The notes under the pieces were generated by a model, which made no database searches, was not told the DNA's origin, and saw only the letters and a program-made list of their open reading frames with translations. Position numbers and translations under genes: made by a program. DNA of 64,000 bases from Vicinamibacteria bacterium (GTDB lineage: Bacteria; Acidobacteriota; Vicinamibacteria; Fen-336): positions 251,770 through 315,769 of the forward strand of contig JBFWVE010000006.1 in assembly GCA_050246895.1 (NCBI GenBank). The letters run 5' to 3'. Positions 783-48,038 of the stretch are shown here, one piece after another; position 1 is the first letter of the stretch; the number at the start of each line of letters is the position of its first letter.

Positions 783-891
783 ACGCGAACGGAGGCAACG
801 GACGGGCGACGGACGTGAACGTCCACGTGAAACGTGAACGTGAACGGGGCCAGGGCGCCCGAACGGCCTGAACGTGAACGTGAACGGGCGC
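783..891. repeat. Intergenic repeat cluster, GTGAACG orientation: GGCGACGGACGTGAACGTCC core plus (GAACGT)n hexamer tandems
   Basis: The sequence here is ggcgacggacgtgaacgtccacgtgaaacgtgaacgtgaacgggg...cctgaacgtgaacgtgaacgggcgc. It contains the palindrome GGACGTGAACGTCC. The same family recurs at 6005-6146 (inverted), 27706-27775, 28315-28408, 28967-29060, 29636-29675, 30401-30526 and 30935-31075. Confidence 0.6.
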
Positions 892-1287
892 TTATGACCA
901 GTTCTCGACTCGAAGCCCCGGCACCCGGCGGAAGTGGCGTGTGTTGTTCGTGACCACGGTGAGCCCGCGCGACAGCGCCTGGGCCGCAACGAGCGTGTCC
1001 AGGATTCCTATCGGACTACCCTTGCCGGCCAGGCCCGCGGCCACCTCCGCAAAGCGCTCCGCTGCTGCCTCATCGAACGGCAACACCGTCAGGTCCTTCA
1101 CGAAGCTGCGGATTGCCTTTCGGAGCTTCTGCGATTTCTTGCGTTCAGCTCCGAATCGCAGCTCAGCCAGCGTAATCGAGCTGATACAGAGGTCGGACGG
1201 CACGTGCTCGAGGATGCGAGCAGCTGCTTGCCCGTGGCCGCGGAGGGCGTAGCTGACGGTATCTGCATCAAGCAGGTACCGGGGCAT
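892..1287 (-). CDS. vapC: VapC PIN-domain toxin
   Basis: From Met34 of the track ORF: MPRYLLDADTVSYALRGHGQAAARILEH...ITLAELRFGAE...LDTLVAAQALSRGLTVVTNNTRHF, a PIN fold with acidic residues. The ATG overlaps the vapB stop in an ATGA overlap. Confidence 0.85.
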   Translation of the reverse strand: MPRYLLDADTVSYALRGHGQAAARILEHVPSDLCISSITLAELRFGAERKKSQKLRKAIRSFVKDLTVLPFDEAAAERFAEVAAGLAGKGSPIGILDTLVAAQALSRGLTVVTNNTRHFRRVPGLRVENWS

Positions 1288-1526
1288 CAGGCGAACGGGT
1301 TTCGCGTGCGGAAGAGGCGCTCCTGCTTCGGGCGAGGAATGTCCTCGGCGATCGAGCCCAGGCAGCCACGGAACTCGGCCGACCATTCATCGGCCGGCTC
1401 GAGGATCACCCGACGTCCCTCCCGGCGAACCAGGACCTCACGCTGGGACCCAAAACGGTAGGCCTTCGGCAGCCGAACCGCCTGGCTTCCGCCGTTCTGA
1501 AACAGCTTCGCTCGAATCGCCTTCAC
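1287..1526 (-). CDS. vapB: VapB antitoxin (AbrB/SpoVT/MazE-type swapped-hairpin)
   Basis: MKAIRAKLFQNGGSQAVRLPKAYRFGSQREVLVRREGRRVILEP is the SpoVT/AbrB motif. The gene is 79 aa with a GTG start and is translationally coupled to vapC. Confidence 0.8.
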   Translation of the reverse strand: MKAIRAKLFQNGGSQAVRLPKAYRFGSQREVLVRREGRRVILEPADEWSAEFRGCLGSIAEDIPRPKQERLFRTRNPFA

Positions 1527-1562
1527 GCCGCGAGTATAGATGCTCGTCTATACGTCCGTCAA
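1527..1562 (-). promoter_or_regulatory. vapBC promoter with an inverted-repeat operator (TATAGA-N6-TCTATA) overlapping the -10
   Basis: The minus strand reads TTGACG-18nt-TATACT, then 8 nt, then the GTG start, so the transcript is likely leaderless or short-leader. The perfect 6-bp inverted repeat TATAGAcgagcaTCTATA (plus 1535-1552) sits between -35 and -10. This is typical of TA autoregulation. Confidence 0.45.
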
Positions 1563-1678
1563 CTCTCCAACTCACTCTCGTGTCCGCCCACGCGCGGTCA
1601 GTTCCCGGCTGGAGCCGTGCTCGTGAACGGTTCCAGCCGGCACTCTTCATCTTCCCCCTGCGACCGATGACCCACCAC

Positions 1679-1993
1679 TCACGGCTCCGCGAGGAACGCG
1701 CGATCTCGGACACGATCAGCCTCCGGGTAGAAGGTCGGTTCCAACTCCCGAATCGCAACATAGATGCGAAGTGCCCGTCGCGCGTTCGCCACCGTAGGAG
1801 CTGCAACCGCGCCGGCCCCGAGCCAGCCGACGGTAAGCCTGGCTCCCTCAGCCGCCACACCGATCTCAATAGACGGGTTGAGGCCGTCGATTGCCCCCTC
1901 CCGTAGTGCCCCGACAAGCGGAGCGCATGGTTGCTGTTGAACGTCGCAACGAGAGTGCGCCTCTCGGGGGAACCGCAGTAACGCGGATCCCAT
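1679..1993 (-). CDS. Hypothetical small protein (possibly a gene remnant)
   Basis: The ORF is 104 aa with moderate GC3 like the neighbouring island genes rather than the core genome. It is A/G-rich and has no recognisable motifs. Confidence 0.2.
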   Translation of the reverse strand: MGSALLRFPREAHSRCDVQQQPCAPLVGALREGAIDGLNPSIEIGVAAEGARLTVGWLGAGAVAAPTVANARRALRIYVAIRELEPTFYPEADRVRDRAFLAEP

Positions 1994-2051
1994 CGTCTGA
2001 ACCCCCCTGATGACAGAACCTGCCCACCATTGCCCCGGCGAACACGCTCGC

Positions 2052-2531
2052 TCACTGGAAGCCTGCTTCTACGAGCCGCCGCAGGAGCATTGAGGCGAAA
2101 GACAGGTGGTCGAGGCAAAGGTCAGGATCATCGCGCACGTCGTACTCGTGACCCCGAGGATTGCGGATGGCGAGCATCGAACCCGCGAACAGGAACTGGT
2201 ATCCCTTTTGCTCGTCCTGTTGCGAGGCAGTAACGAGCGGTGTGAGCCGCAGCGGCGGGGCATCACCGCCGAACACCTGCATCATGAGCTTGAAGCCTGC
2301 TTCGGAAGAACGGGCGTGTCGCTGAACCTGCTTGTCGACGAACTTGTAGGCCTCGAATGTAGCCTGAGCGAAGTGCCCATCATCAAACAGTCGACGTACG
2401 CGGCCCGGCAACGATGACGAGATGTTCCGTGTCTCGAATGGGTGCTGCGGCGCACCCTGCTGGCTCGCGGGTGCCGCGAAACGGCGCGCGCTACGAACGA
2501 TCCGTTCAAAGGCGGCGAAACTACTCGACAT
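2052..2531 (-). CDS. HEPN-like protein (TIGR02391/Abi_C-like) with an RNxxxH motif
   Basis: The 159-aa protein reads ...YQFLFAGSMLAIRNPRGHEYDVRDDPDLCLDHLSFASMLLRRL. R-N-x3-H is the canonical HEPN Rx4-6H active-site motif. It overlaps the upstream gene by 11 bp (operon) and has lower GC3 than the core genome. Confidence 0.6.
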   Translation of the reverse strand: MSSSFAAFERIVRSARRFAAPASQQGAPQHPFETRNISSSLPGRVRRLFDDGHFAQATFEAYKFVDKQVQRHARSSEAGFKLMMQVFGGDAPPLRLTPLVTASQQDEQKGYQFLFAGSMLAIRNPRGHEYDVRDDPDLCLDHLSFASMLLRRLVEAGFQ

Positions 2532-3192
2532 CGATCAGGTTCTCGCGGAGGCTTTTGAATATCCGGTCGTACGTGGGCTGGTCCGCGTCCGCGGGGAGGT
2601 TGATCTCGACGCGAACGGTCAGGCCGACGTCCCGAGCCCGTTTCGCGGCAGACACATCGATGGGCGACGGCGTCGGGGGTGCTGCGGCCTTGGGCTTCAC
2701 AGTTGCGCCCTTCTGGCTCTTCGTAGCCTTGGCCTTGGCGTCAGTCGTCCGGGTCGTCGGTGGCTCGGCCTTGCCGGCGATCGCGGACAGAGCTTGAAAG
2801 GTCGTCGCCTGACGCCTTCCGACGACACCGCTTGTCTCGTCTGTGGATCGGAAGTACTGAATGAGCTTGTTTTGGTCCAGGGACCACGCGGAATCGCCAT
2901 GCAGGGTGAACAGGTCACCGTAGGCATCCTTGACGAGCTTCGAGAATGCCTTCTGGAATGAGTCGTTGGCATGCTGCGTGAACACCTTGGCGCCTTCCGC
3001 CGTCTTCTTGCCCTCCTGGTCGAGAGCATTGATGAAGCGGAGGATGTTGATGACGTAACCCTCGTTGTTGGGCGCAAGTCCGAGCTTCTTGAGCGTCTCG
3101 GCTGTGACCGTGGCCGGAAAGGACTTGCGCAGCTGTTCAACGATCTGAAACAGAGGGCCGCTGCCTGACATGTAGGGGTGTTTCTCAGCCAT
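2521..3192 (-). CDS. Hypothetical protein, partner of the HEPN gene (N-terminal globular domain, K/A/P/T-rich linker, conserved C-terminal ~40 aa)
   Basis: The 223-aa protein has an ATG start with an AGGAGA RBS. It reads MAEKHPYMSGSGPLFQIVEQLRKSFPATVTAETLKKLGL..., then a low-complexity TTRTTDAKAKATKSQKGATVKPKAAAPPTP linker, then LTVRVEINLPADADQPTYDRIFKSLRENLIDVE. Codon usage is low-GC. Confidence 0.55.
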   Translation of the reverse strand: MAEKHPYMSGSGPLFQIVEQLRKSFPATVTAETLKKLGLAPNNEGYVINILRFINALDQEGKKTAEGAKVFTQHANDSFQKAFSKLVKDAYGDLFTLHGDSAWSLDQNKLIQYFRSTDETSGVVGRRQATTFQALSAIAGKAEPPTTRTTDAKAKATKSQKGATVKPKAAAPPTPSPIDVSAAKRARDVGLTVRVEINLPADADQPTYDRIFKSLRENLIDVE

Positions 3193-3356
3193 CGCTCACA
3201 TCTCCTTCGGTTTCACAGTGTGTCGCAACGTGCCCGCCTAACACCGCGGAGGCTGCGAAACGACTCAATCAACGAAAATAGCCTCGCCGGCGCGCCACGG
3301 CCGGTCCCGTTTAAGAGATCCGCGCGTCGTCGCATTCATGCGCTTGTTCGGCCGCC

Positions 3357-3899
3357 TCAGGCCTCCGCTGCATCCTGGTCGACAACGAGTGTCGCAAGGA
3401 ACGCGGACAGCCGCCTCACATCGGCCGACTTGAGGTCCGTCGGCAACGACATGCGGGCGATTCGCCCTTCGCGCAGCGGGAACGGATACTCCACAAACCC
3501 CACCGTCGGAGGGAGCGTCGCCTTCTCGACCTCCTCCGCCGATTCGGCGCCCGGCCGACCCCGCTCGAGCTTCCCGTTCCGAGGTGGTCGTTCCTGGCCA
3601 CCGATCTTCCAGGACGAGGGGTCCTTGAGATAGCCCAGATACGAGGCATGGGCTTTGCGGAAGCGCCGTTCATACTCCTTAAGGCTATCGGGCTTGTACT
3701 CCCTCCCCTTGAGCGTCCGGAATCTCCTAAGGAGGCCATCCACGTCAACTGTGGAGATGTCCAACGCCTCCCAACCCTTCTCGATCTCGAGGACCTTGGT
3801 ACATGCGGCGCGAAGCGCGTTGGCCGTATTCGCGTTGAGGAGACCCTTCCCGGCGGCCCATTCCCAGTGTCCGACGAACTCTCTCCCCGTGCTGCCCAC
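3357..3899 (-). CDS. Hypothetical protein (181 aa) in the low-GC island
   Basis: The start is at GTG (Val62 of track ORF 3357..4082), preceded by AGGAG-7nt. The protein reads VGSTGREFVGHWEWAAGKGLLNANTANALRAACTKVLEIEKGW...KEYERRFRKAHASYLGYLKD.... No family was recognised. Confidence 0.5.
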   Translation of the reverse strand: MGSTGREFVGHWEWAAGKGLLNANTANALRAACTKVLEIEKGWEALDISTVDVDGLLRRFRTLKGREYKPDSLKEYERRFRKAHASYLGYLKDPSSWKIGGQERPPRNGKLERGRPGAESAEEVEKATLPPTVGFVEYPFPLREGRIARMSLPTDLKSADVRRLSAFLATLVVDQDAAEA

Positions 3900-3948
3900 G
3901 AAAGAACTCCTACGGAAGCGGGATGGCCCCTTGCCATCTCCAATCTGG

Positions 3949-3977
3949 AATATATGATATCTATATCGATCTGTCAA
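3949..3977 (-). promoter_or_regulatory. Near-consensus sigma70-type promoter (TTGACA-17-TATATT) in an AT-rich stretch
   Basis: On the minus strand, TTGACA (plus 3977-3972) is followed by 17 nt and then TATATT (plus 3954-3949). This is about 45 nt upstream of the GTG at 3899, and the local AT-rich block runs 3905-3985. Confidence 0.5.
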
Positions 3978-4112
3978 TGAACTACAGATGGCATATCGGC
4001 GGCGGCCCCGCACGACCTTCGCTGGGTGGGCCGGACACACGGATAAGCCAGGAACCCGCGATGCTCGCCGCGAGGCGAGCACGCGACGCCGCGGGCGATG
4101 CGAAGAGGTTCG

Positions 4113-4490
4113 TTAGTCTGTCTGGTTGTTGTGCGGGTCACTCGATGCTCCCAAGGCGAGCCTCAACGAGGGCGACGACCTCCGATAGGACTCGTGCGTC
4201 CGGAGCAATTGGAGGAGAGTGCGTTCCCAGAACAGAGTAGTGCTTGTCTCTAAGAGCCCCTGTTCAAGCGCGGCGGCACGATCACGGAAAGCACGGTGTT
4301 GCTCAAACAACTCTTGCCGCGACGCGCAGGTTCGCAGAAGGGCATTGCCTCTTGCCGTTGTGCGCAAGTTCAGGTGTAGTGCGATCCTCGAAAACGGGGA
4401 CGATGCCTTGGGGGACGAGCTGTCGCCTGTGCGCCCAATTGAGTGGGCCACCATGCGCGGCCCACATGGACGGCAGAGTCCGCAGAACAC
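4113..4490 (-). CDS. Hypothetical small protein with an N-terminal CxxCxxC (possible zinc finger)
   Basis: The protein reads MFCGLCRPCGPRMVAHSIGR.... Codon usage is low-GC (TTA, ACA, ACT). An alternative overlapping minus ORF at 4303..4599 makes the frame choice uncertain. Confidence 0.3.
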   Translation of the reverse strand: MFCGLCRPCGPRMVAHSIGRTGDSSSPKASSPFSRIALHLNLRTTARGNALLRTCASRQELFEQHRAFRDRAAALEQGLLETSTTLFWERTLLQLLRTHESYRRSSPSLRLALGASSDPHNNQTD

Positions 4491-4576
4491 CTCTGGATTG
4501 ACCTGCAGGGGGCGCCCAGTCTGTTGGCAGCAGATCTTGTCTGCTCCAATCCTCTGTTCGACGGTCGTGCGGAGGG

Positions 4577-5128
4577 CTAGGGTTGTTTGTGGTTCGCATC
4601 TCTGCTCATCGTCAGCTTGAGGATTTCGGAATCTAGCCGAGCGATCTCCCTATAGATCGCCGCCGCCTGGGGCCCAAACCCCGGGCGGTCGGATCTGTGG
4701 ACCTCCGAGACCATTCCGCTCTGCAGCTTCTCCAAAGCCATTTGCTTCTCTCGAATGAGTTTGTCAAGGGACTCATAGTGAGCCTTCTCACGAAGAAAGG
4801 CCTCCACCGTACCAAGCCATTTGTTGTCCGACTCGCCGTACGCCGCAGAAATAATGGCCAGCGCCTCACCACGTTTCTCTGAGTCCGGTTCCCTAACCCA
4901 TTCCAGAAGTAGCCTTGCCCGCTCGCGCGCGATGGTCTCCTTCGAGGCCTCCCGGTTTAGAGCGGACTCGGGTCGTTGAACAAGCCAAAAAACGAACGCC
5001 GCGCCAAGAACCGCCAGGAGGGCCTTGACCACCTCGACTCTCAGTTTGGCCTGTTCAAGCCGAAGGGCCGGGTCCACGACTGGCGGCGCAGGTCCCTCTC
5101 GTTTGTCGTCGGGCATTGCTGGTCTCAT
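4577..5128 (-). CDS. Membrane-anchored coiled-coil protein (single TM helix plus a long helical region)
   Basis: The protein reads MRPAMPDDKREGPAPPVV...LRVEVVKALLAVLGAAFVFWLVQRP (TM), then EASKETIARERARLLLEW...LDKLIREKQMALEKLQSG...IYREIARLDSEILKL. A GGAAGG RBS is present, with an alternative start at 5116. Codon usage is low-GC. Confidence 0.45.
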   Translation of the reverse strand: MRPAMPDDKREGPAPPVVDPALRLEQAKLRVEVVKALLAVLGAAFVFWLVQRPESALNREASKETIARERARLLLEWVREPDSEKRGEALAIISAAYGESDNKWLGTVEAFLREKAHYESLDKLIREKQMALEKLQSGMVSEVHRSDRPGFGPQAAAIYREIARLDSEILKLTMSRDANHKQP

Positions 5129-5267
5129 CTCCCTTCCGTCGAACAACGCCAGGCAGCTGACAAGATGATCCCGCTAGCACTGCAGTCAATAGTGCCAGCC
5201 GTGGACCGGCATGTGTCGGGGACTCTCCAGATTGGCCGAGATTAAGAGTTGAAGGAGTGTAGCGCCG

Positions 5268-5774
5268 TCAGCGGCGCGAGGGCGTGTCGAATTTATGCAT
5301 CAGGCCGACCAGCATCGAGACGATGCGGATCAGCAGCGATCGCCCGCGGCGGTGGTCGGCTGGGCTGATCAGGCCGCGGGCCAGCAGCAGGTCGAGCGCA
5401 GCGGCTGACTCCGTGGCCGACCCGCGGGCGATCGAGAAGAACTGGACTTTCTCCCCGGAAGACGAGCGGCCCGCACCCTCCGCCGTGTTCAGGCAAATGC
5501 TGACCGAGGCGCGGTCGAGCTGGTCGCGCAGGGCGCCGAGACCGCGGCCTCGACACAAGCGCGCGGCAAGCTGCTGGAACTCGAGCGAGACGCGATAGGC
5601 GTCGAGCCGGTCGTGCTCCAGCCAGGCGTCGGGCTGTGGCTCACGACCACGAGCCGGCAGCGGTTCACGACCGGGAACCGGCGACGGGCACGGGCGGGCT
5701 GGAGCAGCGGACGCACCGGCGGGAGCGGGGCCGGCTGCGGGATCGCCTGCGGGACTGGTGGAGCGATGGGCCAT
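5268..5774 (-). CDS. Four-helix-bundle protein (TIGR02436 / 23S rRNA IVS protein family, Avd-like fold)
   Basis: The sequence AYRVSLEFQQLAARL...LRDQLDRASVSICLNTAEGAGRSSSGEKVQFFSIARGSATESAAALDLLLARGLI matches the family signature. A ~50-aa Pro/Ala-rich N-terminal extension precedes it. A strong GGAGGTGA RBS sits before the ATG. Confidence 0.75.
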   Translation of the reverse strand: MAHRSTSPAGDPAAGPAPAGASAAPARPCPSPVPGREPLPARGREPQPDAWLEHDRLDAYRVSLEFQQLAARLCRGRGLGALRDQLDRASVSICLNTAEGAGRSSSGEKVQFFSIARGSATESAAALDLLLARGLISPADHRRGRSLLIRIVSMLVGLMHKFDTPSRR

Positions 5775-6004
5775 CTGTCACCTCCGTTCGGGCCGGCGAG
5801 GGCCGGCCTCTCGCGAAGTGGAGGCCGGCCCGAGCGGAACGAAGGTGACAGCAAGGCCAGCGACGCCCCGAGCAGGAGCCGCGCACGCGCCGTGACGCCG
5901 CGGCAGTTCAGGCGGTTCTGTCCGGCGGCGGGCCGCGGCGGCGCGCCGCGTGCAGCGCGGCCGTCAGGGCGTCCTCAGGCCGCCGCGCTCCCCCTTGGTC
6001 GTTG

Positions 6005-6146
6005 CCGTTCTCGTTGACGTTCACGTCTGTAGCCGCTCGCCCCGTTTCGTTCACGTTCACGTTGCCCGTTCCCCGTTCACGTCCGTAGCCACCCGCCGCC
6101 GTTCCGTTCATCGTTCACGTTCCCGTTTGCGTTCACGTCCGCAGCC
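6005..6146. repeat. Intergenic repeat cluster in the opposite (CGTTCAC) orientation: at least 3 copies of the CGTTCACGTC(C/T)G(T/C)AGCC core plus (ACGTTC)n
   Basis: The sequence here is gttgacgttcacgtctgtagccgc...ttcacgttcacgttgcc...cgttcacgtccgtagccacc...cgttcacgttcc...cgttcacgtccgcagccgg. Its reverse complement matches the 27706/28315/28967 elements (GGCTACGGACGTGAACG). Confidence 0.6.
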
Positions 6147-6192
6147 GGCCCGTCGCCCCCCGAACGAGGCTTAGAGTTGTCCCGCACGAAAG

Positions 6193-6621
6193 ATGCCCGT
6201 CCTGACCGATCCCCTCGGCTGGTTCACGCTGCGCTTCCCGGAGGAGTGGGAGCAGACGACCGAGGACGGCGTGACGGTGCTCGGCACGGGCGTGGGCACG
6301 GTCTTCGTGGGCGGCGGCCGCCACGCCGCGGGGCCGCAGCCCGGCTTCGGGGGCTCCGACTTCCTCGCGCGCTTCCTGCGCTCGATCGGCCTGTCCGTGG
6401 AGGAGGCCGCGATCGAGCAGAGCGAGGGCATCGGCTGCCGCATCTACCACTACCGGCGCGAGGCGGAGCAGGCGCACTGGCGCTACTGGTCGGTGACCGA
6501 CGACGAGACGGCCCTGCTGATCTCGTACACCTGCGCGGCGGAGCACGCCGGGCGGGACAGCGACGAGGTCGAGTCTCTGGTCGGCTCGGTGCGCCTGTTC
6601 CACTCCGCGCGGCCCGCCTAG
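6193..6621 (+). CDS. Hypothetical protein (142 aa)
   Basis: The ORF has normal composition (MPVLTDPLGWFTLRFPEEWEQTTEDGVTVLGTG...) and high GC3, with the repeat cluster in its upstream region. Confidence 0.5.
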   Translation: MPVLTDPLGWFTLRFPEEWEQTTEDGVTVLGTGVGTVFVGGGRHAAGPQPGFGGSDFLARFLRSIGLSVEEAAIEQSEGIGCRIYHYRREAEQAHWRYWSVTDDETALLISYTCAAEHAGRDSDEVESLVGSVRLFHSARPA

Positions 6622-6648
6622 CCCGAGGCGGCGAGCTATGATCCGCCG

Positions 6649-7527
6649 ATGCGACCCGCGCTGATCGTCCACGGCGGCTGCGGCACGCCGCCGCCAGACG
6701 AGGAGCGTCCGCGCCAGCTCGCGACCGAGCGCGCCGCCGACGCCGGCTGGGCCCTGCTCTCGCAGGGGGGCAGCGCGCTCGACGCCGTCGAGGCGGCGGT
6801 GCGCCGGCTGGAGGACGAGGAGGTGCTGAACGCGGGCACCGGCGCCTATCTGCAGGCCGACGGCGTCGCCCGCCTCGACGCCAGCCTGATGGCCAGCGAC
6901 GGCCGCGCGGGCGCGGTGTTCCAGGCGCCCAACCTGAAGAACCCGATCCGGCTCGCCCGCTACCTGCTGGAGCAGGACGCGCACGTGGCGCTCTCGGGCC
7001 GCGAGGCGCTGGAGCTGGCGCTGCGCCTGGGCCACGATCCGGCCGTGCTGGCGACGCGGGCCAAGGCCGACTACTGGCGCGACCACCTGGATCAGGCGAG
7101 CCAGCGTCTCGACTACGAGGCGATGGGCCGCGTCTGGCGCGAAGGCAACCCGCGCCTGGGCACGGCCGGCTGCGTGGCGGTGGACCGCGACGGGCGGCTG
7201 GCCGCGGGCACGTCCACCGGCGGAACCGGCCACTGCTACCCGGGCCGCGTCGGCGACACGCCGATCATCGGCGCCGGCACCTACGCGATGCCGCGCGTCG
7301 CCGTCTCGCTGACGGGCGTCGGCGAGCGCATCATGGTGCTGCTGTCGGCCAAGCGCCTGTGCGACCTGGTGGCGGACGGCCGCCCGCTGATGCTCGCCGC
7401 GGAGGCGGTGATCTCGGAGGTCACCAAGACCCGCAGCTTCGCGGGCTTGATCGCGGTCGACCCGTCGGGCCAGCTGGTGGACCTGCGCAACACGCCGTCG
7501 ATGCCCGTGGCGCGGCGCAGCGCATGA
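6649..7527 (+). CDS. Isoaspartyl peptidase / L-asparaginase (Ntn hydrolase, plant-type asparaginase family)
   Basis: IVHGGCG...EVLNAGTGAYLQADG...GTAGCVAVDRDGRLAAGTSTGG (Thr nucleophile) ...TPIIGAGTYA. Confidence 0.85.
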   Translation: MRPALIVHGGCGTPPPDEERPRQLATERAADAGWALLSQGGSALDAVEAAVRRLEDEEVLNAGTGAYLQADGVARLDASLMASDGRAGAVFQAPNLKNPIRLARYLLEQDAHVALSGREALELALRLGHDPAVLATRAKADYWRDHLDQASQRLDYEAMGRVWREGNPRLGTAGCVAVDRDGRLAAGTSTGGTGHCYPGRVGDTPIIGAGTYAMPRVAVSLTGVGERIMVLLSAKRLCDLVADGRPLMLAAEAVISEVTKTRSFAGLIAVDPSGQLVDLRNTPSMPVARRSA

Positions 7528-8243
7528 GCATTCGGCGGCCGTTCGCCGCGCTGGGCCTGCTGGCGCTCGCGAGCGCGCCGTCCGCCTGCAGCTCGGAAGC
7601 ACCGCCCGCCGCGGCCCAGCACGCGACGGCCCGCCCCGAGCCGGCCGATCCGCAGGCTCGGCCGGCCGATCCGGAGGCGTTCATCGCGATGCTGGAGGAC
7701 CCGGCGCGCGACGCCTACCAGCGGCCCGACGAGGTGGTGGCGGCGCTCGCGCTGCGGCCGGGCGACGTGGTGGCCGACATCGGCTCGGGCTCCGGCTACT
7801 TCGCGCTGCGGCTCGCGCGCGCCGTGGGCGAGCAGGGCCGCGTGTACGCGGTCGACATCGACCCCGACCTGATCAAGCACCTGAACCGCCGCATCCGCGA
7901 CGCCGGCCTGCGCAACCTGCACACGGTGCTGGTGCCGCCCGACGACCCGCTGCTGCCCGACGCTTCGATCGACCTCTTCTTCATCTGCGACACCTGGCAC
8001 CACATTCCCGAACAGCCGCGCTACCTGGCCGGCCTGAAGCGCATGCTGAAGCCCGGCGGGCGGGTGGCGATGGTCGACTTCCACAAGCGCGCGCTGCCGG
8101 TGGGCCCGCCGCTCTCGCTGAAGATCTCGCGCGAGGAGCTGATCGCGCAGATGCGCCGGAACGGCTTCGTGCTGGCGAAGGAGCACGGCCTGCTGGCCTA
8201 CCAGTACTTCCTGGAGTTCGTGCCGGCGAAGCCTTCCCGTTAG
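7524..8243 (+). CDS. Class I SAM-dependent methyltransferase with an N-terminal signal/lipoprotein-like peptide
   Basis: From Met56 of the track ORF: MSIRRPFAALGLLALASAPSAC, followed by VVADIGSGSGYFALRLA...VYAVDIDPD...LKPGGRVAMVDF. The start overlaps the upstream stop (ATGA). Confidence 0.8.
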   Translation: MSIRRPFAALGLLALASAPSACSSEAPPAAAQHATARPEPADPQARPADPEAFIAMLEDPARDAYQRPDEVVAALALRPGDVVADIGSGSGYFALRLARAVGEQGRVYAVDIDPDLIKHLNRRIRDAGLRNLHTVLVPPDDPLLPDASIDLFFICDTWHHIPEQPRYLAGLKRMLKPGGRVAMVDFHKRALPVGPPLSLKISREELIAQMRRNGFVLAKEHGLLAYQYFLEFVPAKPSR

Positions 8244-10117
8244 GCGGGGCGGCGCCCGGCCCGGTACAGGAACAGGCACACCGCCAGCGCCAGCCCGAGC
8301 GCCAGCAGCTCGCCGGGCACGCCGGAGACGCGGGGATCGATCGAGCGCGGCGCGAGCTTGGACGCCACCAGCGCGGCCACCAGCACGCCGGCGAGCCCCT
8401 CCCCCGCCACCAGGCCGGAGGCGGCCAGGATGCCGGGATCGGCCTCTGCCTCGCGCCTGGGGCCGTCCCCGCACAGCGCGCGTACGCAGCCGCCGACGTA
8501 GAGCGGCGCCATCGTCGCGAGCGGCAGGTAGACGCCGATCGCGAACGCGAGCCCGGAGACGCCGCACAGGATGGCGCCGATCGAGAGCCCGCCGCCGGTC
8601 AGCACCAGGCCCCAGGGCAAAGCGCCCGCCAGCACGCCCTCGATGATCGTCTTCATCAGGGTCGCCTGCGGCGCGGGGATCTCCTTCGAGCCGAAGCCGT
8701 AGGCGTCGCCCAGCAGCAGCAACGTGGCGGCCACCGCCCAGCAGGCGAACGCGGCGCCGATCAATTGGCCGAGCTGCTGGCGCGCCGGCGTCGCGCCCAC
8801 CAGCCAGCCGGTCTTGAGGTCCTGCGAGATGTCGCCCGACTTCGAGGCGGCGATCGCGACGATGGTGCCGACGGTGAGCACCGCCGCCCGCGCGCCGGGG
8901 TCGGTCCAGCCGGCCGCCGCGAAGACCGAGGCGACGCCCAGCAGCGTCACCAGCGTGATGCCCGAGGTCGGCTGCGTCGACACCCCGACGATGCCCACGA
9001 TGCGCGCGGCCACCGCGACGAACAGCAGCCCGAAGAAGCCGACGCCCGCGGCGCACACCGCGCGCTGCAGCGGGCTCATGTCGCCGGCGAAGATGCCGGG
9101 CACGATGCCGGCGGTCAGCACCACGAACAGGATGCCGCCGACCACGAAGCCGCCCGGCAGGTCGCGCTCGGTGGCCGGCAGGGGGCCGGTCGCGACGCCC
9201 GTGCCCGCGCGCATGCCGCGCGCGACGGCCGTGAAGGCGCCGAGCATCGTCGGCAGGCCGCGGGCCACCGTGATGATCCCGGCCACCGCCACGGCGCCGG
9301 CGCCGACGTAGCGGATGTAGCGAGCCCAGATCGCCGCGGTGTTCATCTCCGACACCAGCCTCTGCGTCTCGGGGAACAGCGGCGCCGTCAGCCCGGCGCC
9401 GGCCCAGGTGATCAGCGGGATGATCGCGAGCGCCGACACCAGGGCGCCCGCGACGCAGACGGCGGACTGCCGGTAGCCCAGGATGAAGCCCACGCCGAGG
9501 AGAGCCGGCGCCACCTCGAGCGCGAGCTGCGCGTTCGGCAGCACCGGCAGCGCCAGCGAGATCTCGTTCGGCACCAGGAACGCGAGCGAGATCAGCAGCT
9601 TCACCGCGGCGCCCACGGCCATCCCGCGGAAGATCCACTCGGAGCCCGTGGCGCCCGCCGTCGTCGCGCGCAGCACTTCGGCGCAGGCGGTGCCCTCGGG
9701 ATACGGCAGCTCGTCGCGGGCGTCGACGATCAGCAGCCGGCGCAGCGGGATCATGGCCGAGAGCCCGAGAACGCCGCCCAGGAAGCAGAGCGCCACGACC
9801 TGCAGATAGGGCGGGGCCATGCCCCACAGGAACAGCGCCGGCAGCGTGAAGATGGCGCCGGTGGCGAGCGAGGTCGAGGCCGAGCCGATCGTCTGCGAGA
9901 GGTTGGCCTCGAGGATGCTGCCCTTCGCGCCGAACATGCGGAAGAGGGCGACCGTCATCACCGCCGCCGGGATCGACGCCGACACCGTCATGCCGACGCG
10001 CAGGCCGAGGTAGGCGTTGGCGGCGCCGAACACGATGCCGAGCCCGACCCCCGTGACGACGGCCTTCAGCGTGAACTCGGCGAGGCCGAAGGCGCGCGGG
10101 GGGACGGCCGCGGTCAC
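8240..10117 (-). CDS. OPT-family oligopeptide transporter
   Basis: The 626-aa polytopic protein reads VTAAVPPRAFGLAEFTLKAVVTGVGLGIVFGAANAYLGLRVGMTVSASIPAAVM.... The GTG start overlaps the M28 stop (GTGA). Track ORF 8240..12007 is a read-through artifact. Confidence 0.85.
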   Translation of the reverse strand: MTAAVPPRAFGLAEFTLKAVVTGVGLGIVFGAANAYLGLRVGMTVSASIPAAVMTVALFRMFGAKGSILEANLSQTIGSASTSLATGAIFTLPALFLWGMAPPYLQVVALCFLGGVLGLSAMIPLRRLLIVDARDELPYPEGTACAEVLRATTAGATGSEWIFRGMAVGAAVKLLISLAFLVPNEISLALPVLPNAQLALEVAPALLGVGFILGYRQSAVCVAGALVSALAIIPLITWAGAGLTAPLFPETQRLVSEMNTAAIWARYIRYVGAGAVAVAGIITVARGLPTMLGAFTAVARGMRAGTGVATGPLPATERDLPGGFVVGGILFVVLTAGIVPGIFAGDMSPLQRAVCAAGVGFFGLLFVAVAARIVGIVGVSTQPTSGITLVTLLGVASVFAAAGWTDPGARAAVLTVGTIVAIAASKSGDISQDLKTGWLVGATPARQQLGQLIGAAFACWAVAATLLLLGDAYGFGSKEIPAPQATLMKTIIEGVLAGALPWGLVLTGGGLSIGAILCGVSGLAFAIGVYLPLATMAPLYVGGCVRALCGDGPRREAEADPGILAASGLVAGEGLAGVLVAALVASKLAPRSIDPRVSGVPGELLALGLALAVCLFLYRAGRRPA

Positions 10118-27705: not shown

Positions 27706-27775
27706 ACGGCACGGAGGCAGTCGGCTACGGACGTGAACGGGAACCGGGAACGGCAACGTGAACGAAAGGTGGACC
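27706..27775. repeat. Repeat-family copy (GTGAACG orientation)
   Basis: The sequence is gacggcacggaggcagTCGGCTACGGACGTGAACGGGAACcgggaacggcaacgtgaacg, directly after the stop of 26079..27704. Confidence 0.55.
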
Positions 27776-28314: not shown

Positions 28315-28408
28315 GACGGCGGCGGTCGGCTACGGACGTGAACGTGAACGAGCAACGTGCACGTGAACGTCGGGAGGCGGCCTAACGGACGTGAACGGGA
28401 ACGTCAAC
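28315..28408. repeat. Repeat-family copy A, about 94 bp and identical to copy B
   Basis: The sequence is gacggcggcggtcggctacggacgtgaacgtgaacgagcaacgtgcacgtgaacgtcgggaggcggcctaacggacgtgaacgggaacgtcaac. It is preceded by the hairpin GTCGTCggcgGACGAC. Confidence 0.7.
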
Positions 28409-28423
28409 GACAACGAGGGCGGG

Positions 28424-28993
28424 ATGCCGCCCACGGTGCAGCTGGCGGGCGCGCGCCTGCGCGGGCTCCGGCCGGAGGACGCCGCGGCGTGGTACCACTA
28501 CTTGAGCGATCCTGTGGTGACCGAGCTGACGAGCTATCCGACGCTGACGTTCGCGGCGGTCGAGTCGATGGTCGAGCACTACCGCGAGGGCTACACGGCA
28601 GGCACGTCGTGCAAATGGGCGATCGCCGCCGGGCCCGACGACACGCTCGTCGGGACCTGTGGGTTCAACGAGTGGTCGCGGAGCCAAGGCTGGGCCGAGC
28701 TGGCCTACGAGCTGGCCGCTTCCCACTGGGGCCGTGGGCTCGCCACGGAAGCTGTTGGGGCCTGCCTGGCCTGGGCGTTCGAGCAGCCCCGGTTCAACCG
28801 GGTTCACGCGTTCGTGATGGTCGGCAACGTCCGCTCCGAGCGCGTTCTGCAACGTGCCCGTTTCACCCGAGAGGGTTGCCTCAGGTCGTACCGCACGTGC
28901 CGAGGACTGCCGCGGGACTTCTGGGTGTTCAGCCTTCTTCGCCCCGAATGGGAGAGTATGGACAACGACGGCGGCGGTCGGCTACGGACGTGA
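28424..28993 (+). CDS. GNAT-family N-acetyltransferase (RimJ/RimL-like)
   Basis: From Met12 of the track ORF: MPPTVQLAGARLRGLRPEDAAAWYHY.... The acetyl-CoA binding region is GTCGFNEWSRSQGWAELAYELAASHWGRGLATEAV. The last nine codons and the stop lie inside repeat copy B. Confidence 0.85.
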   Translation: MPPTVQLAGARLRGLRPEDAAAWYHYLSDPVVTELTSYPTLTFAAVESMVEHYREGYTAGTSCKWAIAAGPDDTLVGTCGFNEWSRSQGWAELAYELAASHWGRGLATEAVGACLAWAFEQPRFNRVHAFVMVGNVRSERVLQRARFTREGCLRSYRTCRGLPRDFWVFSLLRPEWESMDNDGGGRLRT

Positions 28994-29060
28994 ACGTGAA
29001 CGAGCAACGTGCACGTGAACGTCGGGAGGCGGCCTAACGGACGTGAACGGGAACGTCAAC
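28967..29060. repeat. Repeat-family copy B, a perfect direct repeat of copy A lying 652 bp downstream
   Basis: It is the same ~94-bp string as 28315-28408, with stop codons in all six frames. Confidence 0.7.
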
Positions 29061-29311: not shown

Positions 29312-29668
29312 GTGCTCCTCCTGGTTCTCGGGTGTGTCGTGGCGCTCCAGGCGTGGGTGTGGCGCGATCTGTCCACCCGCGTCGAGTGCGGCGGGCTCAG
29401 CAAGATGGGCGCGGTGATCCGCTACGCCCTCTGGGCCCTGATGCCCCCGCTTCTCTTCGTCGTGGCCTTCCTGGTGGGCGTGGGGCTCGAGGAGTGGCTC
29501 GACGTGGCGCTGATCCCAGAGCTGCTGGGGCGGGCGGCGCTTCCCGTGGGAGTGTTTCTCGTTGGCTCTGCCGGGCTTGGCTCAATATGCTTCGGGGTCA
29601 GGTCGGTCTGGCTGGAGGCGCCGGCGGGACGGAGCCGACGTGAACGTGAACGAGGAACGTCCGGGTGA
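29312..29668 (+). CDS. Small integral membrane protein (3 predicted TM helices)
   Basis: The protein is VLLLVLGCVVALQAWVW...AVIRYALWALMPPLLFVVAFLVGVGL...LPVGVFLVGSAGLGSICF. The start is GTG, and the stop falls inside the next repeat copy. Confidence 0.45.
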   Translation: MLLLVLGCVVALQAWVWRDLSTRVECGGLSKMGAVIRYALWALMPPLLFVVAFLVGVGLEEWLDVALIPELLGRAALPVGVFLVGSAGLGSICFGVRSVWLEAPAGRSRRERERGTSG

Positions 29669-30400: not shown

Positions 30401-30526
30401 GTTCGTTCGTTCACGTTCACGTGCGTCGTTCACGTTCACGTCCGTCCGAGCCGGGGAGCCTCAGGTCGACGGGAAGGCCACGGGCGTGAACGTCAACGAC
30501 CAACGTGAACGTGAAAGGCGGGCGGA
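30401..30526. repeat. Palindromic repeat-family copy: left arm (CGTTCAC)x4, ~37-bp spacer, right arm (GTGAACG)x3
   Basis: The left arm is gttcgttcgttcacgttcacgtgcgtcgttcacgttcacgtccg and the right arm is gggcgtgaacgtcaacgaccaacgtgaacgtgaaagg. The arms form an imperfect ~35-bp inverted repeat. Confidence 0.6.
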
Positions 30527-30934: not shown

Positions 30935-31075
30935 CACACGTTCACGTTCACGTGCGCCGTTTCACGTTCACGTCCGTCCAGGCCCGCGGGCCAACGGACG
31001 TACGGACGTACGGGCTGACGGGTCGGTGATACGGACGTGAACGTGAACGTCAACGAGAGCGTCAACGTGAATGCT
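30935..31075. repeat. Palindromic repeat-family copy: CGTTCAC arm, spacer with GGACGTAC x2, GTGAACG arm
   Basis: The sequence is cacgttcacgttcacgtgcgccgtttcacgttcacgtccgtcc...ccaacggacgtacggacgtacggg...gatacggacgtgaacgtgaacgtcaacgagagcgtcaacgtgaatg. Confidence 0.6.
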
Positions 31076-41942: not shown

Positions 41943-44644
41943 GCGCCGACGAAGCGGGCTGGGCGGCGCGCGTGCGAGGCCGCCTCGGCCCGGAAGCCGA
42001 CGCGGACGTCGTGCTCGAGCTCGCGCAGCACGCCGCGTCGAGCTACGCGGCCGCCCGCGCGGAGGGCGCCAGCGTAGAGCAGGCGCAGCGCGCGGTGGAA
42101 GCGGAGCTGGCGGGCTGGGGCGGCGCGCAGGCCGGGCTCGGCCGTCGGCCGCGACGGCCTCCGCTGCTGGAGCCGGCCGCCACGGGAACCAGCGGTCTCG
42201 CGGGCGTCCTCCACGACCTCCGGCACGCGGCGCGCTCGCTGCGGCGCCAGCCGGGCCACTCGGCCTTGGTCGTGCTCACGATGGCCGTCGGCATCGGCGC
42301 GACCACGCTGCTCTTCAGCGTGGTCCACGGCGTGCTGCTGCGGCCGCTGCCCTGGCCGCGTGCCGAGCGGCTGGTGCGTCTCGCCGAGACGCGCGAGGGC
42401 GCGACACGGCAATGGCCCTGGATGTTCACCAACGCGAGCTACCTGCCGTGGGTCGAGGATCCCGCCACGATCGAGGCGCTCGCCGGCTGGCGCAAGGACA
42501 CCGTCACGCTCACGGGCCGGGGCGACCCCGAGCGCCTGAGCCTCGCCGACGTGACGCCGAGCCTGTTTCCGATGCTCTCGGTCACGCCGGAGCTCGGCGA
42601 GGCGTTCTCGGAGGCGCAGGTGACAGACGGCGTGCTGCTGCTGTCGCACGCGCTCTGGCAGCAGCGCTTCGCGGGCCGGCCCGACGCGATCGGCCAGGTC
42701 GTCGAGCTGGACGGGCGGCCGCACCGGGTCCAGGGCGTGATGCCGCGCGAGTTCGAGTTCCCCGACGCCGACGCGCGCGCGTGGCGGCCGCTGCAGGTGC
42801 CGGCGGTCGTGGGCGCCGACGGAACCTCGCGCGGGATCTCGCTCTTCTCCGCGATGGCGCTGCTGCGGCCCGGCGTCAGGCCCGAGCAGGCCGCGGAGGA
42901 AGCAACCCAGCTTGCGCGGCTCGGGCCGGACCCCGGGATGGTGGCGCTCGCGCTGTTCGGGACGAAGGGCGCCGTGCGCATCAGGGCGGTGCCCGCGAAG
43001 GACGCGCTCGTCGCGGAGGTGCGGCCCGCGTTGCTGCTGCTGCTCGCATCGGTGGGCCTGCTGCTGGCCGCGGCCACGGCGAACGTGGCCAGCTTGCAGC
43101 TCGCGCGTGCGACCGCCCGCCGCCGTGAGCTCGCGGTGCGCGCGGCGCTCGGTGCTGGGGGCGCCCGGCTCGCGCGCCTGCTGCTGGCCGAGAGCCTGCT
43201 GCTCGGCCTCGCCGGCGGCGGCCTCGGGCTCGCGCTGGCCGCGGTCGGGCACGGCAGCCTGCCCACTCTGCTGCCACCCGACTTCCCGCGGCCCGACGCG
43301 ATCGCGCTCGACGCGCTGGTGGCGGGGGTGGCGGTCGCGCTCTCGCTCGGCGCCGGCGTGGCGTTCGGCGTGCTGCCGGCGCTGTTCGCCCGCGGGATCC
43401 CGCTCACCGAGGCGCTCGCCGACGACGGCGGCGGTGCCATCGGCGCCGGCCGCTCGAGCGCGGCCAGGATCCGCGCGGCGATGCTGACGGGACAGGTCGC
43501 GGTTGCGGCGCTGCTGCTGCTGGGCGCGCTGCAGGTCGGCCGCAGCTTCCTCGCGATGCTGGGAACCGAGCGCGGCTTCGAGCCGGCGAACCTGCTGGTC
43601 GCCCGCCTGCCGATGTCGGGCGCGCTGTTCAGCCCGGCGCGCCGGCGCGAGATCCCGGAGCGGCTGGTCGAGCGGCTGCGGGCGCTGCCCGCGGTCCGGC
43701 ACGCCGCCTTCACGAGCATCGTCCCGCTGGCGCCGAACGAGGCCGTCGCCGCCTTCACGGTGCCGGAAGGGACGCGCGGGGCGGCGGACGGGCGCCTGCA
43801 CACGGCGGTGCGCCTGGTCAGCCCCGACTACTTCCCCGCGCTCGGTCGCCGCCTGCTTGCCGGCCGCTGGTTCAGCGAGGCGGACGCGGCGGGCTCGCCG
43901 GACGTGCTGGTGGTGAACCGCACGTTCGCCCGGCGTCACCTGGGCGACGATCCCGTCGGATCGGTGCTGCCGATCCGGCTCGAGGAGGGACACGAGCGCT
44001 GGCAGGTGATCGGCGTCGTGGAAGACGTCAAGCAGGCCCGCCTGACCGAGCCGCCGCAGCCCGAGCTGTTCGCGTCCTACCGCCAGCGCCCGAGCGCGGC
44101 GCTCACCGAGCCTGTGCTGGTCGTGCGCACCGGCGGCGCGCCCGAGGCCCTGGCGCCGACACTGCGCGCGCTGGTCGCCGAGCAGGACCCCGCGCTGGCG
44201 CTCGGCTCGATCCGCAGCATGCAGGACATGGTCGAGACGAGCCTGGCCCGGCCGCGGCTCTACTCGCTGCTGCTGGGGCTGTTCGCCGCCTGCGCCCTCG
44301 CGATCGCAGGCGTCGGCCTGTTCGGCGTGCTGTCGTACGCGGTGGCGCTGCGCACGCGCGAGATCGGCCTGCGCGTGGCGCTCGGCGCGCGGCCGCGCGA
44401 CGTGGTGCGGCTGGTCGCGGGCCGCGGCCTGCGGCTGGCCTGCGCGGGCCTCGCGCTCGGCCTGCTGGCGGCGGCCTTCCTCGGCCGCTTCGTCGCCTCC
44501 CTGCTCTACGGTGTGAGGCCGCAGGACCCGTTGGGCGTCGCTGCGGTGGCGTTGGCGCTCGTCGGCGTCGCCGGCCTGGCCTCCGCGCTGCCCGCGCTGC
44601 GGGCCGCGCGCATCGACCCGCAGCGCGCACTGCGCGAGGGCTAG
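41939..44644 (+). CDS. ADOP-type ABC permease (FtsX-like) with an N-terminal permease-prefix domain; coupled to PadR
   Basis: The GTG start overlaps the PadR stop (GTGA). The protein reads VSADEAGWAARVRGRLGPEADADVVLELAQH...LRRQPGHSALVVLTMAVGIGATTLLFSVVHGVLLRPLPWP.... It is 901 aa. Confidence 0.85.
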   Translation: MSADEAGWAARVRGRLGPEADADVVLELAQHAASSYAAARAEGASVEQAQRAVEAELAGWGGAQAGLGRRPRRPPLLEPAATGTSGLAGVLHDLRHAARSLRRQPGHSALVVLTMAVGIGATTLLFSVVHGVLLRPLPWPRAERLVRLAETREGATRQWPWMFTNASYLPWVEDPATIEALAGWRKDTVTLTGRGDPERLSLADVTPSLFPMLSVTPELGEAFSEAQVTDGVLLLSHALWQQRFAGRPDAIGQVVELDGRPHRVQGVMPREFEFPDADARAWRPLQVPAVVGADGTSRGISLFSAMALLRPGVRPEQAAEEATQLARLGPDPGMVALALFGTKGAVRIRAVPAKDALVAEVRPALLLLLASVGLLLAAATANVASLQLARATARRRELAVRAALGAGGARLARLLLAESLLLGLAGGGLGLALAAVGHGSLPTLLPPDFPRPDAIALDALVAGVAVALSLGAGVAFGVLPALFARGIPLTEALADDGGGAIGAGRSSAARIRAAMLTGQVAVAALLLLGALQVGRSFLAMLGTERGFEPANLLVARLPMSGALFSPARRREIPERLVERLRALPAVRHAAFTSIVPLAPNEAVAAFTVPEGTRGAADGRLHTAVRLVSPDYFPALGRRLLAGRWFSEADAAGSPDVLVVNRTFARRHLGDDPVGSVLPIRLEEGHERWQVIGVVEDVKQARLTEPPQPELFASYRQRPSAALTEPVLVVRTGGAPEALAPTLRALVAEQDPALALGSIRSMQDMVETSLARPRLYSLLLGLFAACALAIAGVGLFGVLSYAVALRTREIGLRVALGARPRDVVRLVAGRGLRLACAGLALGLLAAAFLGRFVASLLYGVRPQDPLGVAAVALALVGVAGLASALPALRAARIDPQRALREG

Positions 44645-47563: not shown

Positions 47564-48038
47564 GCCAGGCCTCCAGGTTGCGCTCGATCTGCTGCGCGTG
47601 CCCCTCGAGGTGCCGCGCGTAGCTGCGCAGCCAGTCCTCCGCGCCGTAGGGCCCCGACTCCGTGTGCCGGCCCTGCTTCGCCCAGTCCGCCAGCTGCAGG
47701 CGCCGGATCATCGGCAGCGTGTGCGCCCGCACGGCATCGACGGTGCGCAGCGCGACGTCCGCGGGGTGCGCGTGGTAGTCCAGGACGCGCGCCCAATCGG
47801 CCTGGTCGTAGCCGAGGATGAGCGGCTCCTTCTCGGCGACGAGATAGCGGATGCGCAGCGAGGCGTTGCTCTCGGAGTCGGCGCAGTGCACCACCACCTC
47901 GTGGGCCGACCATTTGTCCTCGTCCGGCCGCCACTGGCGCGCCTCGGCAGGCACCTTCTCCCAGGCGGCGCGCAGCCGCGCCGGACCCATCTCGTACTCC
48001 CGAATCAGCTCCTCGCGCTCGCGTGCGTCCATCGGCAT
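47541..48038 (-). CDS. DinB/YfiT-like (DinB_2) four-helix metalloenzyme-family protein
   Basis: From Met22 of the track ORF: MPMDAREREELIREYEMGPARLRAAW...WSAHEVVVHCADSE...YARHLEGHAQQIER. A GGAAAGG RBS precedes the start. Confidence 0.6.
   Translation of the reverse strand: MPMDAREREELIREYEMGPARLRAAWEKVPAEARQWRPDEDKWSAHEVVVHCADSESNASLRIRYLVAEKEPLILGYDQADWARVLDYHAHPADVALRTVDAVRAHTLPMIRRLQLADWAKQGRHTESGPYGAEDWLRSYARHLEGHAQQIERNLEAWLTSRRSS

Follow-up and report, generated by a model that had tools for sequence, protein, structure and literature searches.

What does a short AT-rich patch do in a genome of 72–75% GC? The patch lies at 3905–3985 of a 64-kb stretch of DNA from a Vicinamibacteria (Acidobacteriota) metagenome-assembled genome (MAG), the whole of which we analysed and call the window, and it stands directly 5′ of a minus-strand gene for an uncharacterised 180-aa protein (3357–3899). 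A first-pass annotation had read it as a foreign-looking, E. coli-like promoter for that gene, typical of horizontally acquired defence cargo, and as the site of a possible operator. We find that the patch is probably a housekeeping-sigma (sigma70/sigmaA-type) promoter inside an integron-type cassette, and that it would switch on the 180-aa gene. Below we give the evidence from the motif, from its conservation and from the cassette, and weigh three other explanations.

A near-consensus promoter motif in the AT-rich patch

The minus strand of the patch carries a −35 hexamer TTGACA (3972–3977) and, after a 17-nt spacer, a −10 hexamer TATATT (3949–3954), matching 11 of 12 consensus positions; spacers of this promoter type measure 16–18 nt. 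Our scan for sigma70-type promoters found no other match of at least 11/12 on either strand of the whole 64 kb, and three further matches of 10/12. None of 100 dinucleotide-preserving shuffles of the whole window gave a match of at least 11/12, and the four matches of at least 10/12 compare with a mean of 0.16 in those shuffles. The first-pass annotation was right to call the block isolated and its motif near-perfect and the strongest promoter-like signal in the window: 3950–3989 has the lowest GC of any 40 bp there (27.5%, against a mean of 72%, s.d. 7.6; the next lowest is 40%). The match is no by-product of AT-richness, because shuffling the 80-bp patch alone reached at least 11/12 in just 0.14% of trials.

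The motif is also well placed. The −10 hexamer ends 49 nt before the GTG start codon at 3899, and a Shine-Dalgarno sequence AGGAG, read from the sequence, lies 7 nt 5′ of that codon (3907–3911, minus strand); both had been noted at first pass, and both agree with the public gene call and with the N-termini of homologues. The gene call and the homologue promoters described below also uphold assignment of the promoter to this gene, with a small correction to its length: the product has 180 aa, the 181 first reported having counted the stop codon, which is included in the span 3357–3899. A hypothetical protein called in the source MAG matches this product at 100% identity. TTGACA/TATAAT is the housekeeping-sigma consensus across bacteria, so an “E. 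coli-like” promoter does not imply foreign DNA, and this part of the earlier argument falls away.

Conservation of the predicted promoter across a protein family

The 180-aa product belongs to a small protein family of 28 clusters, spread over Planctomycetota, Betaproteobacteria, Methylomirabilota, Acidimicrobiia, Myxococcota and Gammaproteobacteria. We compared the upstream regions of 36 distinct homologue loci from genomes and metagenomes, leaving contigs P0006, P0009 and P0010, which hold close homologues, out of the DNA comparisons. TTGAC stood between −130 and −40 in 27 of the 36 loci (shuffles: mean 2.5, maximum 6), and a promoter of at least 10/12 in 13 (shuffles: mean 0.65, maximum 3). 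The −35 hexamers cluster, counted from the start codon, at about −55 to −60, −70 to −80 and −95 to −100, and the enrichment holds over loci of 37–72% GC.

The closest orthologues, in loci L056 (76% protein identity) and L057 (72%), keep the whole arrangement: the −35 hexamer is invariant, the −10 hexamer reads TAGATT at the same position with unchanged spacing, and the GTG start and the Shine-Dalgarno region GTAGGAGTC are retained. The predicted promoter is one that travels with its gene across phyla. We infer from this that it is active, and the comparative evidence is the main reason to accept that activity.

Many promoter regions of the family also hold short repeats, which differ by clade. 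Locus L014 has three 11-bp direct repeats AATGCTATnnn over its promoter, with AATGCTAT three times at 11-bp spacing. Within 140 nt upstream of the family gene, L026 has ATTTCCGGAAAT twice around the −35 hexamer, L037 and L039 have TTCCATG/CATGGAA four to five times, overlapping their promoters, and CTACAG/CTGTAG in L043 and TTCGAAAT in L021 are further locus-specific repeats that overlap promoters.

An integron-type cassette, its attC site and a probable second one

The orthologous locus L057 shows what surrounds the promoter. Between every gene it has a 78-nt imperfect palindrome, GCyGCCnAACAAGGrGATGmAGCTGACGA ... TCGCAGCTkATCyCCrGTGTTrGGC, which is built like an integron attC site, having R″ (RYYYAAC) and R′ (GTTRRRY) boxes, a variable loop, and an L stem in which a base is bulged. 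In the window the stop codon of the 180-aa gene is followed at once by an element of this type (3230–3357, minus strand, 128 nt; R″ GCCGAAC at 3352–3346, R′ GTTAGGC at 3242–3236), which aligns with the repeats between the genes of L056 and L057. We built a covariance model (R1) from six attC copies, including this one, and used a second model (R2) beside it; the window site, as a member of the training set, scores 57.6 bits with R1 and 47.1 bits with R2.

R1 also finds three sites that were not in its training set, at 40–52 bits, in L001, a complete integron of a Planctomycetaceae MAG (1140–8974) with its integrase on the cassette strand. That integrase passes TIGR02249, NCBI's model for integron integrases, with 431 bits against a cutoff of 265, and the sites follow its gene, which validates the elements as attC. 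Over ten sites, 90.8% of the positions paired in the model structure can pair, compared with 74% in shuffles and 28–43% when the partners are slid, and 13 pairs have changed on both sides.

A second site, probably the attC of the preceding cassette, lies at 4476–4567 on the same strand (R″ GTCGAAC at 4562–4556, R′ GTTCTGC at 4488–4482) and begins 10 nt past the stop codon of the upstream neighbour, a gene for a 179-aa protein (4577–5116, minus strand). It scores 17.5 bits with R1 and 17.6 bits with R2, with E-values that run from 0.0014 in a search of 4.6 kb to 0.02 in one of 64 kb. We call this site only probable because an unrelated GC hairpin at 47957–47920 scores equally (17.8 bits with R2). 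Should both sites be real, the cassette would span 1246 bp, from 4487 to 3242. Searches with both models, filters off, found no further attC sites after the genes for the Ymh, vapC and IVP proteins described below.

Between the 179-aa gene and the 180-aa gene are 677 nt without a called gene, and most of this, the minus-strand stretch 3994–4475, is non-coding in the public annotation. A 125-aa open reading frame (ORF) at 4113–4490 was considered as a decayed cassette gene and rejected, having no homologue in the fetched loci and no Pfam match. At about 4060–4029, GTGTGTCCGGCC aligns with GGTGTTAGGCCG of L057 and may be a decayed attC 3′ half, which hints at two fused cassettes; the covariance model detected no site at this position. 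Rfam returned nothing at gathering thresholds in the 64-kb window and nothing at E ≤ 1 in 3150–4650. An integration site at a tRNA or tmRNA gene near the patch was also rejected, the sole tRNA of the window being at 43313.

A complete integron has an integrase within a few kb. This is so in L001; in the window, the L001 IntI gave a best tblastn E-value of 1.8, and no integron integrase was found among the called genes within 10 kb on either side. The locus resembles an orphan cluster of attC sites without an integron integrase (CALIN), with one solid site only. The gene at 3357–3899 is part of an integron-type cassette, and the predicted promoter is cassette-borne, because in L057, L001 and L019 it sits between the upstream attC and the start codon. 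The origin proposed at first pass therefore holds in part: the island of about 60% GC and the integron-type cassette support acquisition, whereas the gene directly driven has no PADLOC match and is not recognisable as defence cargo.

A core-binding-like product and the loci of its family

An AlphaFold model built on the family alignment is confident over residues 1–95 (predicted local distance difference test, pLDDT, about 90), which are predicted to form a four-helix domain with the core-binding (CB/SAM-like) fold of tyrosine recombinases. In the model a disordered linker (residues 100–130) leads to a C-terminal 45-residue beta-beta-alpha domain, which is probably oligomerising. The protein thus modelled would be a DNA-binding domain tethered to an oligomerisation domain. 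Pfam (including its integrase models), NCBIfam and PADLOC gave no match to the protein, a profile search of the PDB returned noise only and no similar chain, and an hhalign comparison with the core-binding domain of the L001 integron integrase gave a probability of 0.5%. Identity as a tyrosine recombinase was rejected, there being no R-H-R-Y catalytic domain and no Pfam integrase match: the protein has the core-binding-like fold only, and is not a recombinase, because it lacks both the catalytic domain and sequence similarity to the integron integrase.

The homologues stand in several kinds of context. In L014 (1222–3035) the family gene is followed by DUF5343 and Hypoth_Ymh genes in the same order as in the window, at 50%, 53% and 60% protein identity, and contig P0010 also has a Ymh gene after the family gene. 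The gap past the family gene of L014 has ends reading GCCTAAC ... GGTTATGC, which the attC models do not recognise. In the integron L001, the genes between attC sites encode a HicA-domain protein, a TIR_2 protein, a four-gene unit and then an acetyltransferase; the four-gene unit forms one cassette of the family gene, a 104-aa protein, a HEAT_2 (HEAT-repeat) protein and an N6_N4 methyltransferase. The family is not restricted to integron cassettes, because in L005 (1744–9085) and L006 (1950–7477) it has prophage-like contexts: there the gene comes first in an early operon with AAA_24, DUF669, RusA and DUF3799 genes, prophage replication genes that lie beside a serine recombinase, from which the family gene of L005 diverges. 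In L003 the family gene is next to smpB.

The fold and these contexts allow a bolder and speculative reading, to which we give little weight: the 180-aa protein may found an unrecognised class of stand-alone DNA-binding factors, resembling the core-binding domain of integrases, that would spread in self-expressed integron cassettes and as prophage early genes. By binding folded attC, or repeats in its own promoter region, such a factor would autoregulate and control the cargo behind it, which would be the DUF5343/HEPN pair in the window and L014 and the HEAT-repeat protein and methyltransferase in L001; alternatively, it could modulate cassette recombination.

Weighing the explanations

In the explanation we prefer, TTGACA-17-TATATT would be the recognition site of RNA polymerase, which would begin transcription of the minus strand at about 3941–3944, a position predicted from the −10 hexamer only. 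The leader would then be about 42–45 nt long, beginning with a stem-loop and carrying AGGAG before the GTG at 3899. The cassette would close with the attC directly after the stop codon, and its gene, for a protein with a putative DNA-binding fold, flexible linker and small, probably oligomerising, domain, would be expressed autonomously from the internal promoter. It is the internal promoter that would enable expression of the cassette, because the window has neither an integron integrase nor a platform promoter. Read-through over attC would possibly serve the promoterless DUF5343/Ymh pair as well.

The most serious rival, possible but doubtful, would refine this explanation rather than exclude it. 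The promoter would lie in a repressor-controlled operator region or immunity-type switch, in which the core-binding-like protein or another factor binds repeats over the promoter and a palindrome at +5 to +25, so that the promoter is normally shut or autoregulated. Across the family, promoter regions do hold an excess of 8-mer repeat pairs (252 against 126 ± 16 direct, 177 against 114 ± 16 inverted) whose motifs are clade-specific, as in L014, L026 and L037, and the modelled combination of a DNA-binding fold, a linker and a small second domain would suit such a role; autoregulation by the 180-aa protein is an attractive, if doubtful, refinement. The window itself, however, shows no such excess: its promoter region holds 1 direct and 5 inverted pairs where 2.7 and 2.9 are expected, a count reached by 47 of 100 shuffles. 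The GATATC-centred near-palindrome that the first-pass annotation had proposed as an operator is GATAT-AG-ATATC, with 5-bp arms within TA-rich sequence. Our repeat search did not report it, L056 and L057 read CATATC, and the repeat content equals that of shuffles, so we reject it. An 8-bp inverted repeat flanking the promoter, TGCCATCT (3932–3939) and AGATGGCA (3986–3993), was rejected likewise, being lost in both orthologues.

The +5 to +25 palindrome fits an RNA stem, for example a 5′ stabiliser, better than a DNA operator, because it tolerates G-U pairs in L056 and L057. It corresponds to the stem-loop UGG.GAUGGC-AAGGG-GCCAUCCCG at the predicted 5′ end of the transcript (3919–3942, minus strand), which folds at −12.4 kcal/mol (z −1.97). 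Leaders of L056 and L057 fold at the equivalent place (z −2.96 and −2.36, respectively), with stem exchanges among the three of A-U to G-C and of U-A to U-G to C-G, and leaders across the family are folded more stably than shuffles (n = 23, mean z −1.21 ± 0.31). This comparison is one of separate folds of each leader; RNAalifold on a MAFFT alignment of the three showed no covariation, with the window hairpin out of register.

Far less probable is a bidirectional promoter, in which TTGCCA-16-TATGAT on the plus strand (3931–3958), overlapping the minus-strand motif, drives a non-coding or antisense RNA into 3994–4475. The plus-strand motif matches 10/12, and a long unannotated stretch does lie to its right; against this, some match of 10/12 arises in about 3% of patch shuffles, the orthologues weaken the plus-strand hexamers (their −10 reads TACGAT, and L057 has lost the −35), the public annotation has no plus-strand gene downstream, and there is no Rfam family and no conserved ORF in the fetched loci. 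The match is probably incidental to the AT-rich patch.

Least likely of all, and very improbable, is that foreign DNA left the patch behind as a compositional relic, or that nucleoid-protein silencing targets it, with a fortuitous match and transcription by read-through from the 179-aa gene: the surrounding 4–5 kb are indeed lower in GC (60% against 72–75%) and read-through is geometrically possible, the genes from 5146 down to 892 all being on the minus strand, but patch-only shuffles seldom produce such a match, the hexamer positions are conserved in dozens of loci of widely differing GC, and between the promoter and the upstream gene stand about 590 nt of non-coding DNA and a probable attC hairpin.

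Several points weigh against a cassette-borne promoter as we propose it. The leader hairpin is not significant in the window alone (z −1.4 to −2.0). The strong attC site at 3357–3230 was in the training set, and independent support comes from the L056/L057 alignment and the L001 matches; the upstream attC is marginal, which leaves the cassette start and the CALIN classification insecure. The source is an uncultured Vicinamibacteria MAG, in which use of this promoter is a prediction. Many homologues lie outside recognisable cassettes, some in prophage-like settings beside a serine recombinase, so the promoter belongs to the gene family and not to integron cassettes as such.

Neighbouring genes of the low-GC island

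The cassette lies in an island of 60–64% GC at about 1000–5000. Downstream of its attC are two candidate defence genes on the minus strand: a DUF5343 gene (2521–3192; assigned by Pfam, and by PADLOC to PDC-M34A at 1.8e-26) and, overlapping it, a Hypoth_Ymh/HEPN-like gene (2052–2531; PADLOC PD-Lambda-3_B at 3e-12, with a HEPN model match). A literature search on DUF5343 and PDC-M34 gave no results. The promoter scan found no promoter-like site between 3192 and 3357, and the two genes may be co-transcribed from the cassette promoter by read-through. The defence framing of the first-pass annotation is right only indirectly, as these genes would be reached by read-through alone. The variable loop of the long 128-nt attC contains a GC hairpin, CCGGC-N8-GCCGG, followed 7 nt on by T-rich TATTTTCGTT; it may act as a weak terminator and so tune read-through into DUF5343. 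A terminator scan did not call this loop hairpin in the 3193–3357 region.

Further along the minus strand are the toxin-antitoxin genes vapB and vapC (892–1526), of which vapB has a promoter-like site of its own, TTGACG-18-TATACT (1533–1562, minus strand, 10/12). Its −10 hexamer ends 6 nt before the GTG (1524–1526), which suggests a leaderless vapB mRNA, and a perfect 7-bp inverted repeat over it, GTATAGA-N6-TCTATAC, looks like a typical antitoxin operator.

At the other edge of the island, where GC rises, a 168-aa protein of the 23S_rRNA_IVP family, a four-helix bundle, is encoded at 5268–5774 (minus strand), inside one array of GTGAAC units; we take this family to be that of the Avd proteins of diversity-generating retroelements (DGRs). 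The heptamer GTGAACG occurs 45 times in the window against 6.7 ± 2.5 expected, as tandem GTGAAC units in tight intergenic clusters, often after GGCTACGGAC. Clusters lie at 815–886 (+), 6018–6136 (−), 27733–27764, 28338–28397, 28990–29049, 29640–29652, 30408–30439 (−), 30486–30511, 30939–30971 (−) and 31037–31049. Inverted clusters flank the low-GC island at about 890–6010, and the second set, at 27.7–31.1 kb, stands between small ORFs, about every 650 bp. GTGAACG looks like a genome-specific interspersed repeat or other module boundary.

Comparison with known systems

Temperate-phage early and immunity promoters resemble the family in having a strong consensus promoter before the first gene beside a recombinase, as in L005 and L006, and locus-specific repeats over the promoters of many members. 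Unlike them, the window copy is in a cassette instead of a prophage and lacks significant repeats, and its repressor/operator pair is putative. The product shares its mobile-element context with tyrosine-recombinase core-binding domains and with two integrase-like phage regulators, SroF of Phi3T and MrpR of SPbeta; it differs from these in being a 180-aa protein without a catalytic domain and without sequence similarity to integrases, and in having an unrelated C-terminal beta-beta-alpha domain.

CALINs are defined as groups of two or more attC sites that share a strand and lie less than 4 kb from one another, without an integrase (Cury et al. 2016, PMC4889954). In the window, two attC-like sites share a strand at a distance of 1.1 kb, and no integrase was found near them. 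It differs in that its second site is marginal, that the sites come from a home-made model and not from that of IntegronFinder, and that none was found past the Ymh or vapC genes.

The closest parallel is with promoter-bearing cassettes. A promoter is rare in a cassette but does occur (PMC4889954); the Sucellos defence cassette, for one, has its own (10.1101/2024.07.02.601686). The window resembles toxin-antitoxin cassettes, Sucellos in the chromosomal integron of Vibrio cholerae and ORF-less cassettes with promoter activity in having a predicted sigma70-type promoter inside a cassette, between the upstream attC and the ORF, independent of the promoter Pc of the integron platform, from which promoterless cassettes downstream could be driven; here, too, the neighbours are a vapBC toxin-antitoxin pair and candidate defence genes. 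Unlike them, the window comes from a Vicinamibacteria MAG with no integrase found in 64 kb and one solid attC only, its cassette encodes an uncharacterised protein with a core-binding-like fold in place of a toxin-antitoxin pair or a known defence protein, and recognisable cassettes are not the only setting of the gene and promoter.

As a promoter it is unremarkable; what it adds is its mobile context, that of an integron-type cassette with a promoter of its own in a remnant that lacks an integrase. Most cassettes have no promoter and stay silent away from the platform promoter, and one with its own conserved consensus promoter would be expressible wherever it landed and may turn on neighbours that have none, the candidate defence genes DUF5343 and Ymh among them. 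The locus flags an uncharacterised, widely scattered protein family whose predicted fold suggests DNA binding, and offers a simple and testable handle on the continued expression of orphan cassette clusters.
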